A DNA stretch of 64,000 bases from Escherichia coli O127:H6 str. E2348/69 (GTDB lineage Bacteria > Pseudomonadota > Gammaproteobacteria > Enterobacterales > Enterobacteriaceae): the NCBI RefSeq assembly GCF_000026545.1, contig NC_011601.1, one strand, 5' to 3'. Positions 39,001-45,000 of the stretch are shown one piece after another. Position numbers: made by a program. Each line of letters begins with the position of its first letter. Positions within the stretch are counted from its first letter, which is position 1.

Positions 39001-42000
39001 ATGCTCTGAAACAGGTCACTAATATCATCTAAATAGTTGACTCATAGTGACAGCATGTGTTGTGTCTTGCAGTATTATATAGTCTATTATTTAGATTGAA
39101 GCCATCATAATCTATTGATGTTAATGGTTTTTATTGTTTGTTGTTCGGCTTTTTATACTAATTTGAGCGAAACAAAAAGATAAAAAGTTGTTTTTCGTGT
39201 CTTTAAGTGATACCAGATGGTATTGCGCTAAATGTACCAATGGGTATACCAAGAGCACTAAAAACAAAGGGGCAACCACTTTGTAACCCCTTGATTATTT
39301 GCAGAAGCGCAGAAAATCGAACTCTGGAACCCTTTCGGGGCATCCTTTTTCAAGAATGAAGAAAAAAATAACTAAAAAATCAAGTTGTTAGGAAGTTATT
39401 CATGGCTAGTGTACCAACTCTTTTCTGGGCTAATAGCTATGATTTGTTTGTATTATTTGTCTCTGTCTCTATTATTTTTGACATCCATGCGACTTCTGAT
39501 ATTGATAATCTCAGTTGTGGAGTTCTGTCTGCGCTTCCGGGAGGACGCATATCAAAACTACTGGATCTTCTGTTAAACACTGTAAAGCCATCTACATTGC
39601 ATGTTGTTGAGTCTAAGATACAATTTTTAGTGTTACGATAATGCTAGGGCGGAAAGTTTCTTCCACTCACTAAAAGTCGAATGCATTTACGGCTAATATT
39701 TTATGAGTCGGGAAATAATGCAGACGGCTGTGTTTAATTAGATCTAGTGTGATTACAATCGGTGGTGCCGACACAGTACTTGTGGCTGTCTCAGCACGGA
39801 ACTGTTTTGAAAAACAGAACCTTGATTAGGGCTGTGTCCACATTACGTAGGTAGGATCACCCCACAGGCACCACATGTCATGCATGGATTAGGATTGAAT
39901 GATAAATCGTAAAGAAAACTGCAACACCTCGCGTGTAGCACCTGGTTAGCGAACTTTCGAAAGTACGAGTATTGTATGATTTCCAGCAGTTATCAATTTT
40001 ACGTATTAATCAGTGAATCAACAACTCGTCAGCAGACTCTCTTTGTTGTGGAATTTTTTGGAACGTGTATAGGGTAGAAATTTTTGTTTTGGGACATGGT
40101 TGGGACGCCGTAGTACATACGAACTCTGCCGAATAACGTATGATATTATTTTTTAATCTCTTGGAATACATTATAGAAACAGAATGCTCTTGGGCGATTT
40201 TTAGTGATTGTTTAAATAGCCCTGTCATGCAGTTAAAGTGGCGGGCATCCTCTTCAAGGATGGTGATCCTCAACCGCACCCATTTAGGATGCGACTATTG
40301 TGGTAGAACAATGTAAACCATAGTTAATCTGCGTGCGGATACATGCTTCATAGATAGGATATTCTGGTTTGGGTTGTGAATGTGTTGGTCATCGAGTGGA
40401 CAATAAGGTAAGAGGAGTAACTCCTGCAAAACAAAAAAAGAGTTCAACAAAATCAATCAGTTAAAAACACGAGAGATCTGTATAAAAAAGCATCGTAAAT
40501 TCTGTATTTTTCCTTTAAATATAATATGTTATTGAGTTTTGTAAAATCTACCGGTCTGGTACATGGATATCGATACCGAAGTGAAATATAAATCCAACGG
40601 CGCAGTGCTGCCTGCAGGGCGTTATTCTGACAACGTACGCCTTGACCCGTGGGTATTTATGTTCTCTGCGGGTTACCGCTTCTAATTTTTTACCATCAAT
40701 AAATATCCTCCGGCATAGCCGGAGGTTTTTCAAATGCGCCTATAAGGCTCTCTTACCAGCCGCGCCCTAACAGGCGCACACGATCTGACATTTGCATCCA
40801 ACTTCGTTACTTACGGCCCGTAAACGGGCTGCCCGGATAGGGAATCGATAACTGCTCTCCCATTTTATCCTCTTCAAGCTGGTGCTTTATGTAATCCTGT
40901 ATCTTCGCCGTGTTCTTACCCACCGTATCGACGTAATACCCTCTGCACCAGAACTCCCTGTTCCTGTACTTGAATTTCAAATCACCAAACTGCTCGTAAA
41001 GCATCAGACTGCTTTTCCCTTTCAGATATCCCATAAAGCCGGATACGCTCATTTTGGGCGGGATCTCCACAAGCATATGGATATGATCTGCACAGCATTC
41101 AGCTTCCAGAATCCGTACACTTTTCCACTCACACAGCTTTCTCAAAATACAGCCTATTGCTCTACGCTTCTCTCTGTAGAACACCTGTCTTCGGTATTTT
41201 GGCGCAAATACTATGTGATATTTACAGTTCCATCGGGTGTGCGCTAAGCTCTTTTCGTTCCCCATTGGGACCCCCTTTTGATTTCTTGTTTGACACTTGC
41301 AGTTGCCAGACCGCAAGGTGTTTTAACAAATCAAAAGGGGTTTTAATAACTGGCTCAAAGCTGAAAGCTTTCCGGAACCCCCAGCCTAGCTCTGTCTCTT
41401 ATACACAAATCCCCACCCGGGGATTTGTGATGTCTGTCAGTCTGCTTTAGGGGGACTCTTTCCATCCGGTAGTTTCCTTCCTCCCCGGCAGCGATTTTTT
41501 GAACTTTTTCCTCACCTGTTGATCTTCTCTTATATTTCATTTTCTTCGGGTCTGTTATGGTACTTTCTGATTGTTATTCATGGGCTAACGAGCAGTTTGG
41601 ACATGCCCGTCTCGGTGATCCGCGTCGTACACGACGCCTTGTGTCACTGGCCTCTTCTCTCGCTCAGCATGCAGGTCTTTCTATTGTGAAATCATCCCAG
41701 TCCACTGCTCAGGTTGAAGGTGCGTACCGCCTGATACGTAACCCGTCTGTGTCCCCGCAAGCCATTGCCGAAGCCGGATTTACCGCCACTGTAAGGGCAT
41801 GTGAGGCTCATCCGCTGCTCCTCGCGCTGGAAGACACCACCACCATTAACTTCAGTCACAGTACGGCATCTGATGACCTGGGGAATACCACCACTAACCC
41901 GAAGACGCGCGGGCTGCTGGCTCACTCTGTCCTGATGTACGCCCCCGACAGCGCCCTGCCAGTCGGTCTTATCGAACAGCAGCGCTGGAGTCGTGCCACG

Positions 42001-45000
42001 GACACCTACGGTGTTAAGCACCAGCGAAAAGAACGTCCCTATGAAGAAAAAGAAAGTTACCGCTGGCAGCAGGCTTCGGAGCGCATGGCCGAACGGCTGG
42101 GGGAGATACAGAAACGGGTAATCACTGTCTGTGACCGGGAAGCGGATATCTGGCATTACCTGCATTATAAAGTCAGCCACGGGCAGCGCTTCGTGGTGCG
42201 TGCAGCACAGAATCGCCGGCTGGAAGAAGCACCCGGCAAGCTCTTCGAACTGCCGGAAGTCCTGGCAACCGCGGGAAGCCACACGCTGAATGTGATGCAA
42301 AAAGGCGGGCGGGCAGCCCGCCAGGCCCGGATGTTCATCAGTTACAGCGAAGTCAGCATAAAAAATCCCGACAACAGCGGCCAGGCGCTCCCGCTCACGT
42401 ATGTCTGTTGCCGGGAGCAGGCAGAGGACGGCGCCTGCTGGCATCTGCTGACGTCAGAAAAAGTGGCGAGTGCCGCCGATGCGCGACGTATCGTCAGCCA
42501 TTACGAGCGACGCTGGCTGATAGAGGAATACCACAAGGCGTGGAAAAGTGGTGGTACATGTGTGGAATCGCTGCGAATGCAGACCCGGGATAACCTCGAG
42601 CGCATGGTGGTTATCAAGGCGTTTATCGCGGTGCGGGTGCTGGGCCTGCGGCAGGGCGGTATCAGTGAAGAAACACAAAATGACAGCTGTGAGAAAATAC
42701 TGACGCCGACAGAGTGGAAACTGCTGTGGGTTAAGCTGGAAGGAAAACCGCTTCCGTCACAGATGCCGACACTGAAATGGGCCTGTCTGAAACTGGCGAA
42801 ACTGGGGCGATGGCATGACAGCAAACGCACCGGTCGCCCCGGTTGGGTAGTCATGTGGGATGGCTGGTTCAGACTTCAGGATATGGTTGAGGGTTACCTG
42901 GTGATGAAGTCTCTTGATCAGGAGATCTGATCAAGAGACAGAGCCTAGCTGGGGGTTTTCTGTGCACAATAAACCGCCAGATGTTTTCTGGCGGTTTGTC
43001 TCAAATTAACGTCGTGTAGCCGCTTTCATCGGTTGTACAAAAGCTTTCAGTGCCGCCAGCATTTTCTCTGGCTCATTAATATGTTGCTCGATGATTTTAA
43101 CGATGGCCGAACCAGAAATCGCGCCTGCAGCTCCTGCATCAATCGCTGCTTTTACCTGGTCCGGAGCGGAAATACCAAATCCCTGCAATGGAGGTGCAGC
43201 GTTGTACTCTTTCAGCTTTGCAACCAGATGATTGAGGGGTAACGCGGCGCGGTTTTCTGCGCCGGTCACGCCCGCACGCGACAGCAAATAGGTGTAACCA
43301 CGACCGTAAGAGGCTATCTGGCGCAGCAAATCATCGTCGGCATTCGGTGGGCAAATAAAGATAGGTGCGACATTATGACGCAACGCGGCCTGGCGGAAGG
43401 GCGCGGACTCTTCCACGGGCACATCGGCAACCAGCACCGAATCGACGCCGACTTTCTCGCACTCGGCATAAAACTCATCAATGCCTTTGTTAAACACCAG
43501 GTTGGCATACATCAAAAGGCCGATGGGAATGGTCGGGTGCTTCTGGCGAATGAGTGCCAGCACCTCAAAGCACTGCGCCGGGGTTACTCCCGCCGCAAAA
43601 GCACGCAGTGTGGCGTTTTGAATCGTCGGGCCATCCGCCAGTGGGTCGGAGAAGGGGATGCCTAACTCCAGCGCGTCAGCACCGGCTTCAATTAGCGTAT
43701 CGATAATTTTCAACGACTGCTCAATGCCCGGATCACCGAGGGTGACGAAAGGAACGAATGCGCCTTCTTTGCGCTCCTTCAACTGGGCAAACAGAGATTC
43801 GTAGCGTTCCATCAGATTTCCCCTCGTGCTTTCAAAATATCGTGAACGGTGAAGATGTCTTTATCGCCGCGACCGGAAAGGTTAACCACCAGTAGCTGCT
43901 CTTTTTCCGGATTTTCGCGCATCATTTTCAGCGCATGGGCCAGGGCGTGGGAGGATTCCAGCGCCGGGATGATCCCTTCATGCAGGCAAAGCGTTTTAAA
44001 GGCTTCCAGGGCTTCATCGTCGGTAATAGACACGTAATCAGCGCGTCCAGTGCTGTTGAGATACGCATGTTGCGGGCCGACGGACGGGAAATCCAGCCCG
44101 GCAGAAATGGAGTAAGACTCTTCAATTTGCCCGTCTTCGGTTTGCATCATCGGCGCTTTCATACCGAAATAGATGCCCACGCGACCATGTTTTAACGGTG
44201 CGCCGTGCTCGCCAGTTTCGATACCGTGGCCGCCAGGCTCCACACCAATCAGGCCGACGTCGGTTTCGTTGATGAAATCTGCAAACATACCGATGGCATT
44301 CGAACCACCGCCAACACAGGCGATAACGGCATCCGGCAGGCGACCTTCTCTTTCCAGAATCTGCGCTTTCGTTTCTTCGCCAATCATCCGCTGAAACTCA
44401 CGCACAATGGTCGGGTAAGGATGCGGGCCAGCTGCGGTACCCAGCATATAGTGCGCGGTTTCATAACTGCCGGACCAGTCGCGTAGCGCCTCATTACAGG
44501 CATCTTTCAGGGTCGCGGAACCGCTATGCACCGGGATCACTTCCGCACCCATTAAGCGCATCCGGAAAACGTTAGGCGACTGGCGTTCAACGTCTTTGGC
44601 ACCCATATAAATACGGCATTTCAGGCCGAGCAGGGCGCTGGCAAGGGCCGACGCCACGCCATGCTGACCGGCACCGGTTTCGGCAATAATTTCAGTTTTA
44701 CCCATCCGCTTCGCCAGTAAAGCCTGACCGAGTACCTGGTTAGTTTTATGCGCGCCGCCGTGCAGCAAATCTTCGCGCTTCAGATACAGCGTGGTGTTCG
44801 TCCCGGCTGTAATGTTCTGGCATTTGGTCAGCGCGGTTGGACGCCCGGCATAGTTTTTCAGCAGGTCGTTGAACTGAGCCTGAAATTCAGGATCTTTTTG
44901 CGCGCTGACAAAAGCTTCTTCCAGCTGGCGCAGAGCAGGCATCAGGATTTGTGGCACGTACATGCCGCCAAACTCACCAAAATAGGGGTTAAGTAATGTT

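Follow-up and report, generated by a model that had tools for sequence, protein, structure and literature searches.

ISEc13, a Tn5-like insertion sequence nested in an IS200 end hairpin beside trpA of Escherichia coli E2348/69, and its C-run/G-run target motif

Introduction

For tagmentation and mutagenesis, the usual near-random insertion enzyme is the Tn5 transposase; its target consensus, A-GNTYWRANC-T, is weak, and Tn5 is used as a near-random mutagen. To our knowledge, the way in which Tn5 reads its target DNA is poorly defined. The IS50 subgroup of the IS4 family has been tabulated by its terminal repeats, element length and 8–9 bp duplications (PMC2266710). Within the IS4 family, IS186 has the target 5'-GGGG(N6/N7)CCCC-3', and its authors hold that the transposase reads the flanks of this target and not the duplication (PMC5009759). 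Insertion into REP elements has been described for IS1397 and ISKpn1 (IS3 family), IS621 and ISPpu9 (IS110 family) and ISRm22 (IS4 family) (PMC1525189). In Salmonella IS200, finally, nt 12–34 form a bidirectional terminator (PMC4513863).

We analysed a 64,000-nt stretch of the genome of E. coli O127:H6 E2348/69, hereafter the window, in which two copies of ISEc13 are found, one of them inside an IS200 element next to trpA. In the eight papers found to mention it, ISEc13 is named a single time each, never in a title or an abstract; we found no published account of its target preference, which is apparently undescribed so far.

Results

Two nested elements downstream of trpA

The features of the locus, with the basis for each in brackets, are as follows.

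40698–42967, minus strand: IS200C, split by ISEc13 and 711 bp long without it (independent-copy alignment and exact empty site)
40807–41265, minus strand: IS200C tnpA, Y1/HUH transposase, 152 aa (RefSeq WP_000526113.1; Pfam PF01797)
41275–41398, minus strand: IS200 5'UTR/art200 (STnc490) region (Rfam RF01405, 116.9 bits; gathering score 56)
41376–41382, minus strand: IS200C left-end hairpin, outer part of its 3' arm, AACCCCC on the plus strand (partner arm now apart)
41383–41391, no strand: target duplication AGCCTAGCT, left copy, 9 bp (read directly)
41392–42941, plus strand: ISEc13 copy B, IS4 family, IS50 subgroup, intact, 1550 bp
41557–42930, plus strand: ISEc13 transposase ORF, 457 aa plus stop (ORF listing)
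42942–42950, no strand: target duplication AGCCTAGCT, right copy, 9 bp (read directly)
42951–42957, minus strand: IS200C left-end hairpin, outer part of its 5' arm, GGGGGTT on the plus strand
42968–42997, minus strand: intrinsic terminator native to the trpA/ompW junction, bidirectional, minus-strand sequence AAACCGCCAGAAAACATCTGGCGGTTTATT (present in genomes without the two IS)
43006–43812, minus strand: trpA (stop codon 43006–43008)

Copy B is 100% identical to RefSeq copies named "IS4-like element ISEc13 family transposase", and "ISEc13 transposase" is the UniRef name within the cluster of its protein. It runs from CTGTCTCTTATACAC... at 41392 to ...GATCAAGAGACAG at 42941; both ends have CTGTCTCTT in common, with hairpins inside each end. 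Terminal inverted repeats starting with 5'-CT, a length within the 1350–1550 bp of the subgroup, direct target repeats of 8–9 bp (10 bp in one site) and a DDE transposase encoded in one ORF and bearing the Y-(2)-R-(3)-E-(6)-K signature place it in the IS50 subgroup of the IS4 family. The transposase has precomputed Pfam matches to PF14706 and PF01609 and shares 42% identity with the Tn5 transposase (E = 6e-84), with which its DDE/YREK residues align (EDTT, CDREAD, YxxRWxIEExHKAWK). A first-pass annotation of the window had reported a 9-bp duplication around this IS50-like copy, and we indeed read AGCCTAGCT as an exact direct repeat on either side. The distance to the trpA stop codon, first put at about 40 bp, is in fact 64 nt from the IS end and about 48 nt from the outer edge of the restored hairpin. 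An Rfam match to "drum" at 42899–42985 was rejected as spurious: it scores 34.4 bits, below the gathering score of 43, and comes from a 13-bp stem in the right end of ISEc13.

IS200C begins with GTGCACAG at 42967 and closes with ...CCTCCGGCTATGCCGGAGGATATTTATT at 40698. A Y1 (HUH) transposase of about 150 aa (PF01797; RefSeq annotation of the IS200C tnpA), subterminal hairpins at both ends, the absence of terminal inverted repeats and the lack of any duplication beyond the TTTATT shared with the empty site are all features of the IS200/IS605 family. A T-rich run (TTTATT, TTTTTT or TTTGCTT) precedes every IS200C copy aligned, and the right end finishes with TTTATT. The last 7 nt of the RF01405 match extend into ISEc13.

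When ISEc13 and one repeat are deleted in silico, the sequence reads GGAACCCCCAGCCTAGCTGGGGGTTTTC, with a perfect 10-bp stem and a 3-nt loop, AACCCCCAGC-CTA-GCTGGGGGTT. Folded as DNA, this hairpin reaches -11.7 kcal/mol (z = -3.7), a value equalled in 0 of 200 shuffles; the right-end hairpin of IS200C folds at -10.0 kcal/mol. The perfect stem announced by the first-pass annotation thus stands, but not its strand letters, as the plus strand has AACCCCC, with two A, and not AAACCCCC. Likewise, copy B does lie inside the hairpin, not in its loop as such but centred on the apex: the predicted loop is 3 nt long and the duplication takes the top 3 bp of each arm. All 16 uninterrupted IS200C left ends that were read, from 14 other genomic contexts, carry GTGCACAGAAAA-CCCCCAGCTAGGCTGGGGG-TTCCGG with the restored hairpin sequence unchanged, and the flanks of the copies diverge immediately before GTGCAC. 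The hairpin therefore belongs to the left end of IS200, as first proposed, and not native DNA downstream of trpA; the region downstream of trpA in K-12 has no such hairpin.

IS200C starts directly after the TTTATT of the trpA/ompW terminator, which folds at -13.1 kcal/mol (z = -8.4), and ISEc13 was the later of the two elements to insert. Seven genomes contain the junction excised in silico at 100% identity, and 682 contain it with at least 80% coverage; genomes without either IS join trpA to ompW exactly as the double excision predicts. The elements were first placed beside trp t: they do adjoin a terminator, but it is the B2-type bidirectional trpA/ompW terminator. The K-12 trp t was rejected as the adjoining terminator, since its sequence differs and K-12 has yciG, yciF and yciE between trpA and ompW. 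The relevant ancestor is the trpA/ompW-adjacent arrangement.

The target motif of ISEc13

The second copy of the window has the following coordinates.

3100–4649, minus strand: ISEc13 copy A, 1 nt different from copy B (transposase R180W)
3092–3099 and 4650–4657: 8-bp duplication CTGTGCGG of copy A, in the site CCCC-CTGTGCGG-AGGGG

Its context, gaatCCCC-CTGTGCGG-AGGGGcaat, is as the first-pass annotation gave it, with a duplication of 8 bp instead of 9.

Other insertion sites of ISEc13 were collected from viral and metagenome hits, which were collapsed into 53 non-redundant half-sites, as redundancy among the hits was high and a number of them stopped at a contig end, leaving only one flank. 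No ISEc13 was found in the species-representative genomes, only relatives at 39–53% identity, which served as an outgroup and were left out of the motif. A cut at a constant distance from the far IS junction was considered; the near edge of the duplication used as an anchor gave invariant positions and was adopted. One has to keep in mind that the motif is drawn from surviving insertions and that selection may shape part of the pattern.

Across about 35 independent sites, the target reads 5'-C-Y-C-N^(N8-9)^N-G-R-G-3', with CCCC[T/C]-N8/9-[A/G]GGGG as the preferred form. This motif is found in 48 of the 53 half-sites, where chance alone would give about 6.6% (P ~ 6e-51); at least 2 of the 5 non-conforming half-sites come from copies with mismatched flanks. 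The complete independent sites, 16 in number, have C at -2 and -4 and Y at -3 in every one of their 32 half-sites, and the duplication is of 8 bp in 11 sites and of 9 bp in 5 (12 and 6 when two more sites of a variant IS, which fit the motif, are included). The survey thus bears out a target preference with a C-run/spacer/G-run pattern, as first suggested, although it is better written CYCN^N8-9^NGRG, with a duplication more often of 8 than of 9 bp. The sites compared indicate that ISEc13 strongly prefers a short C-run/8–9 bp/G-run palindrome.

When the sites of the window itself were left out of the training of a scoring matrix, the copy A site ranked 1 of 121,717 candidate positions, ahead of the right-end hairpin of IS200 (12) and of the copy B site (48), the latter with only a moderate score. 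The stricter C5-N9-G5 occurs in the restored window (60.9 kb) at the copy B site alone, which speaks against a coincidence. The loose motif CCCN-N8/9-NGGG occurs there 34 times, with 2 instances occupied; by itself, it does not suffice for ISEc13 insertion.

Recurrent hits in IS200 hairpins and terminators

The IS-in-IS arrangement suspected at trpA is real and recurrent. The IS200 left-end hairpin has been struck in seven contexts and in both orientations: at trpA in the window, in a prophage (L116), at hydN (L120), on IncF plasmids, in two metagenome contexts and at a porin-adjacent site. The right-end hairpin has been struck too (L131, plus the right junctions of L056 and L057), one of these right-end insertions having a 10-bp duplication and breaking the half-site rule on one side. 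In one E2348/69 assembly, 3 of the 7 IS200C copies carry ISEc13 in an end hairpin. A single site can receive the element in both orientations, namely the satP/mog terminator (L041 and L050), a prophage site (L042 and L095) and the IS200 left end itself. IS200 end hairpins and convergent-gene terminators would be hit repeatedly, in either orientation, because GC-clamped hairpins often contain the palindrome.

Discussion

Considering the identities and boundaries of the two elements, the order in which they inserted, the motif and its recurrence, we think it probable that IS200C settled after the trpA/ompW terminator and that ISEc13 then landed on the dyad of its hairpin by virtue of its own target motif. 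IS200C entered right behind the T-run of the native terminator. ISEc13 came later and, by cut-and-paste DDE transposition, took the very dyad of the left-end hairpin (nt 11–33), which in IS200 is the bidirectional terminator protecting the element; it would have done so because this hairpin matches its motif. The motif comprises two inverted half-sites 5'-C-Y-C-N^, 8 or 9 bp apart, with CCCC[T/C]-N8-[A/G]GGGG and CCCCC-N9-GGGGG as preferred forms; each transposon 3' end joins one nt beyond the C-Y-C triplet of its own strand, so that the duplication length (8 or 9, once 10 bp) depends on the half-site spacing. The transpososome would read this motif in duplex DNA.

We favour sequence over hairpin structure as what the ISEc13 transposase reads. 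The first-pass annotation spoke of structured sites, and a transposase recognising an extruded hairpin or cruciform, or a single-stranded hairpin, and joining at the top of the stem would give the C and G runs no other role than clamping stable stems. Many ISEc13 sites are indeed true hairpins with contiguous stems of 6–10 bp, several of them convergent-gene terminators, and positions 6–10 outside the core are complementary in 45% of cases, where 25% would be due to chance (P = 8e-5); relatives at 42–49% identity lie in terminator hairpins without C-run arms (AAAGGCT/AGCCTTT, for example), and the duplication of the multi-copy Alishewanella element, 8–11 bp long, always abuts the arms. However, 5 of the 16 complete sites pair through a 3–4 bp CCC/GGG core alone, the copy A site folds weakly (-4.4 kcal/mol, z = -1.2), and the 45% complementarity of occupied sites is not significantly different from the 36% of unoccupied motif instances of the window (P = 0.20, a small sample). 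Moreover, in both IS200 hairpins, the cuts fall 3 bp within the predicted stem, after a pyrimidine run (CCCCC^, CCTCC^), and not at the loop boundary, which points to a sequence motif and not to a strictly structured site; we therefore regard structure-specific targeting as unlikely.

Two further explanations fare much worse. ISEc13 could insert nearly at random, like Tn5, and persist only where it is harmless, such as in terminator loops or other IS; several sites are located about 24 bp past stop codons, between convergent genes or in other mobile DNA. Selection alone, though, could not fix a register so exact that C stands at -2 and -4, on either side, in all 32 half-sites, would leave the half-site conformity to chance at the P value given above, does not account for the same 8- or 9-bp duplication being re-used in both orientations, and sits poorly with copies under ygfK, vat and a fimbrial usher gene (by RefSeq annotation); the precision of the register contradicts this reading, to which we give very little credence. 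It is just as improbable that gene conversion or recombination spread a single IS200::ISEc13 insertion to other IS200 copies. Orientation and 9-bp duplication are indeed identical in five of the seven left-end hits, but the motif rule predicts an identical duplication under repeated independent hits as well, the orientation is opposite in two contexts (trpA and the porin-adjacent site), the IS200 homology on one side of the insertion is only 26 nt, and the right-end hairpin has also been struck.

A broader possibility, to which we give a low probability, is that ISEc13 and its marine Gammaproteobacteria relatives at 42–49% identity form a Tn5-like clade reading both arms of a hairpin-forming palindrome with spacers of 8–11 bp, each strand transfer being placed relative to its own arm. 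A stagger of 8–11 bp would be hard for a rigid transpososome on B-form DNA, which would point to a non-B target (cruciform or melted loop) or non-concerted transfers. If such a clade exists, terminators and the hairpins of other elements would be built-in safe harbours.

Targeting by the sequence motif would have consequences beyond trpA. ISEc13 is a natural relative of Tn5 with a stringent, symmetric target and almost the same ends (they match the outside and inside ends of IS50 almost completely, the right end CTGTCTCTTGATCAGATCT being equal to the inside end), and a direct comparison of the two could help to locate the residues in contact with target DNA and perhaps to build site-biased Tn5 variants. 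The motif explains the positions of the roughly 30 ISEc13 copies in the prototype EPEC strain and predicts future hot spots, both at terminators and at the ends of IS200. Inactivation of one IS by another may be systematic, as the proportion of IS200C copies hit in one E2348/69 assembly suggests, and ISEc13 hits have left IS200 "skeletons" on common IncF plasmids. At trpA itself, the practical consequence is small: with trp t undamaged, the insertion would do the host no harm. The IS200C copy appears disabled by its split hairpin and is probably immobilised, since Y1 transposases of its family bind subterminal hairpins.

Comparison with known systems

ISEc13 resembles IS186 in having GC-rich palindromic 4-mers around a duplicated core whose length varies by 1 bp and whose sequence is not conserved, and in its repeat hits in either orientation. 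The two share a logic but not a motif: instead of GGGG 5' and CCCC 3' around a 6–7 bp core, ISEc13 sites have the reverse polarity (C-run 5', G-run 3'), a core of 8–9 bp and one spacer nt between run and cut, and ISEc13 belongs to the IS50 subgroup, not to the IS186 lineage. With IS50/Tn5, it shares the transposase fold, the DDE/YREK residues, the 8–9 bp duplications typical of the subgroup (PMC2266710) and a preference for G/C at both ends of the duplication; unlike Tn5, it has near-invariant flanking positions and hot spots. The left-end hairpin of IS200C is a stem-loop like that of Salmonella IS200 (PMC4513863), at nt 11–33 instead of 12–34, and is likewise followed by the 5'UTR/art200 region (Rfam STnc490), but in the copy studied here it is split by 1.55 kb and no longer able to form, be it as a terminator or as a hairpin for the transposase to bind. 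Like the IS that target REP elements, ISEc13 inserts at the centre of short GC-rich intergenic palindromes and recurrently into a repeated palindrome family, here the IS200 end hairpins. Unlike them, it is not confined to one repeat family: IS200 hairpins are one class of target beside unrelated terminators, prophage and coding DNA (by RefSeq annotation), with only the CYC/GRG half-sites in common.

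An ISEc13 copy nested in an IS200-like element

The element that the first-pass annotation had called IS50-like beside trpA deserves this label: it is ISEc13, whose 100%-identical copies are tagged "IS4-like element ISEc13 family transposase" in RefSeq, and its 457-aa product matches the Tn5 transposase (E = 6e-84, 42% identity), with catalytic and YREK residues aligned. The features of the window that matter here are the following:

41392-42941, + strand: ISEc13 copy B, 1550 bp (both ends searched and sequence read)
3100-4649, − strand: ISEc13 copy A, one base apart from copy B, changing R180 to W in the transposase
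40698-42967, − strand: IS200C, the IS200-like element interrupted by copy B, 711 bp of own sequence
42968-42997: native bidirectional trpA/ompW terminator AAACCGCCAGAAAACATCTGGCGGTTTATT of the E2348/69 lineage

Copy B starts with CTGTCTCTTATACACAAATCC, ends with GGAGATCTGATCAAGAGACAG, and is flanked by exact 9-bp repeats AGCCTAGCT (41383-41391 and 42942-42950); with the majority transposase variant, it looks intact. ISEc13 is present in 27-30 copies on chromosomes of E2348/69, the enteropathogenic E. coli O127:H6 strain of the window, and across 5,426 complete E. coli genomes it occupies 4,555 places. The region 40400-43300 is found at full length and 100% identity in all three E2348/69 chromosome assemblies, and our genome search returned no genome beyond these assemblies covering it.

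Within ISEc13, strong hairpins lie just inside each end (41404-41429 and 42909-42939), one with an 11-bp stem CACAAATCCCC/GGGGATTTGTG (−12.4 kcal/mol), the other with a 13-bp stem overlapping the transposase stop codon (−13.7 kcal/mol). This last stem causes a sub-threshold Rfam "drum" match, which we rejected.

Origin of the interrupted hairpin

With ISEc13 and one repeat excised, the minus strand again reads GTGCACAGAAAA-CCCCCAGCTAGGCTGGGGG-TTCCGG, a hairpin with a 10-bp stem and a 3-nt loop at nt 11-33 of IS200C (−11.7 kcal/mol; none of 200 shuffles was as stable). The restored sequence stands at the left end of each of the 16 uninterrupted IS200C copies that were read, which come from 14 other genomic contexts; IS200C contexts include sites 3' of sohB, ybfA, glyS, thrC, ahpF, rnb, and luxS, and the flanks of the copies diverge right before GTGCAC and right after ...GGAGGATATTTATT. 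We also joined in silico the trpA side to the ompW side without IS200C and ISEc13; 7 complete genomes contain this predicted 184-nt empty junction with 100% identity, and 682 match it at ≥80% coverage. As IS200C copies share the hairpin while their flanks diverge, and as the empty site exists, the hairpin is part of IS200C, as had been proposed, and not native trpA-downstream DNA. By comparison, trp t differs in K-12, where yciG, yciF, and yciE intervene.

The hairpin corresponds to the inverted repeat at nt 12-34 of Salmonella IS200, a bidirectional rho-independent terminator shielding the element from outside transcription (PMC4513863). Just downstream of it lies an Rfam STnc490 match (116.9 bits).

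Every IS200C copy examined (at least 15 contexts: window 42962-42997; loci L003-L007, L116, and L120-L130) starts with GTGCACAG directly 3' of the T-run of a host intrinsic terminator. The right end of IS200C is itself a hairpin followed by ATATTTATT, so that the target resembles the element's own right end; an excess of terminator-like sequences is reported upstream of IS200/IS605 elements (preprint 10.1101/2025.07.22.666184). To the left of IS200C (window ~39600-40690; 538-1786 of locus L001), ompW survives as a 3' remnant only, with an EspO pseudogene and fragments of IS3 and IS256 before it; its 5' part in E2348/69 was removed by an island or a rearrangement.

Target motif of ISEc13

Flanks of ISEc13 were collected from look-ups of the exact transposase and its variants and from annotated E. 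coli records, with further ones from one metagenome and one viral-contig scan using the 26-nt left end as a query. Once shared sites were collapsed, the set held 16 independent sites that were complete (19 later on) along with 53 non-redundant half-sites, a half-site being C-Y-C-N on one side of the target duplication or its mirror N-G-R-G on the other.

Bases flanking the duplication at the complete sites, with positions counted outward from the duplication edge
−2 / +2: C / G, 16/16 on each side
−4 / +4: C / G, 16/16 on each side
−3 / +3: C or T / G or A, 16/16 on each side
−1: T, 7/16
−1: C, 6/16
−1: G, 3/16

The duplication measures 8 bp at 11 sites and 9 bp at 5, two more sites adding one of each length and one later case reaching 10 bp. 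The consensus is 5'-C-Y-C-N^(N8-9)^N-G-R-G-3', typically CCCCT-N8-AGGGG or CCCCC-N9-GGGGG. It is fitted, in either of two registers, by 48/53 half-sites against about 6.6% expected (P~6e-51), which bears out the suggested preference for a C-run, a spacer, and a G-run; at least two of the five non-conforming half-sites belong to copies with mismatched flanks, indicating later rearrangement. ISEc13 is a known insertion sequence with a well-defined target motif, the motif itself being apparently unreported; our literature search, with ISfinder outside its scope, found ISEc13 in eight papers, a single time in each and never in a title or abstract.

A weight matrix trained without the window's own sites was applied to the 121,717 candidate positions of the restored window (60.9 kb, both ISEc13 copies and one duplication each removed). 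It ranked the copy A site 1st, the IS200 right-end hairpin 12th, and the copy B site 48th; the sole C5-N9-G5 site in the restored window is the IS200 hairpin. The second rank goes to an unoccupied gggcctccCGGGCCAAagggggaa at restored-coordinate 29988, near-identical to a prophage site occupied by ISEc13 in another genome (L037); that site belonged to the training set, so this rank is no independent prediction.

Recurrent insertion sites

This motif makes IS200 end hairpins and intrinsic terminators recurrent insertion sites for ISEc13. One 8-bp target in the satP/mog terminator is occupied in both orientations (L041 versus L050), and so is an 8-bp prophage target (L042 against L095 and L106). 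The IS-in-IS nesting described in the first-pass annotation is confirmed, and an ISEc13-type element is found at the identical 9-bp target of the IS200 left-end hairpin in seven contexts.

Contexts of ISEc13-type insertions in the IS200 left-end hairpin
trpA: this window
E2348/69 prophage copy (L116): orientation opposite to the window's
near hydN: assembly CP059840.2 (L120)
IncF plasmids: adjoining parB
two more metagenome contexts
porin-adjacent chromosomal site

Among 5,426 complete E. coli genomes, 254 carry the junction in the orientation of the IncF-plasmid, prophage, and hydN copies, in most cases on a plasmid; the porin-adjacent junction occurs in about 35 genomes. The right-end hairpin, CCTCC-GGCTATGCC-GGAGG, is also targeted: in the luxS-adjacent IS200C of E2348/69 (L125/L131), it carries ISEc13 with the duplication GGCTATGCCG, the only 10-bp case seen, where the half-site rule is broken on one side. 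In LT903847.1, ISEc13 sits in 3/7 IS200C copies encoding the exact Y1 transposase (TnpA) of the window.

In the plasmid and one metagenome context, the ISEc13-like element lies between 26 nt of the IS200 left end and 23 nt of the right end. This IS200 "skeleton" adjoins parB on IncF plasmids (L057, L061, and similar loci; 1800-2900 of L117, p504838_108), and its ISEc13-like element is about 95% identical, with an internal deletion of about 590 bp. By the simplest route, two such insertions and then recombination between them would have produced it. Three loci (L065, L085, and L098) show triple nesting: an ISEc13-like element in an IS200 left-end hairpin is itself interrupted, at its nt 50, by an IS3-family element. 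Some ISEc13 copies have mismatched flanks that match those of another copy (L043 and L044, about 60 kb apart in CP148541.1; L054/L064; L063/L076; L105), hence inversions or other rearrangements through recombination between IS copies.

Sequence or structure

Many ISEc13 targets are true hairpins with 6-10 bp stems, several of them about 24 bp past stop codons, between convergent genes, and one may ask whether the transposase recognises the hairpin. We consider recognition of a sequence motif in duplex DNA more likely. Indeed, 5/16 sites pair through the CCC/GGG core only, and many shuffles fold at least as well as the copy A site (z = −1.2); the cuts in both IS200 hairpins lie away from the loop boundary, 3 bp into the predicted stem and immediately past the pyrimidine run; and occupied sites show 45% complementarity beyond the core, versus 36% for unoccupied motif instances of the window, a difference that is not significant. 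On the other side, relatives with transposases 42-49% identical to ISEc13 are also found in terminator-like hairpins, some without C-run arms, and in a multi-copy Alishewanella element, the duplication (8-11 bp) always abuts the arms, being the spacer between them. On these grounds, we rate structure recognition as unlikely. The relatives (L008-L035) come from Alishewanella, Alteromonas, Pseudoalteromonas, other marine bacteria, and MAGs, and share near-identical termini CTGTCTCTTATACACAAATCCCC.

Nor can the duplex motif be replaced by survivorship, whereby surviving copies alone would shape the site pattern: this cannot explain nucleotide-exact registers, and ISEc13 copies are also found, by annotation, under genes such as ygfK, vat, and a fimbrial usher gene.

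Probable consequences at the locus

As trp t is intact, no effect on the trp operon is expected. The left-end hairpin of IS200C, split by 1.55 kb, would no longer act as a terminator. In the IS608 and ISDra2 family, the Y1 transposase binds a hairpin; by analogy, the split hairpin would no longer be usable in this way, and the IS200C copy beside trpA is probably immobile.

Comparison with known systems

The review that lists the IS50 subgroup with 8-9 bp repeats makes no mention of ISEc13 (PMC2266710). REP palindromes are targets of the IS4-family ISRm22 and of several IS3 and IS110 elements (PMC1525189); ISEc13, in contrast, is not tied to a single repeat family. The closest parallel is IS186, also of the IS4 family, which inserts at GGGG(N6/N7)CCCC, in either orientation and with a core of variable length (PMC5009759). 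ISEc13 targets are built alike, except that the polarity is reversed and the core longer.
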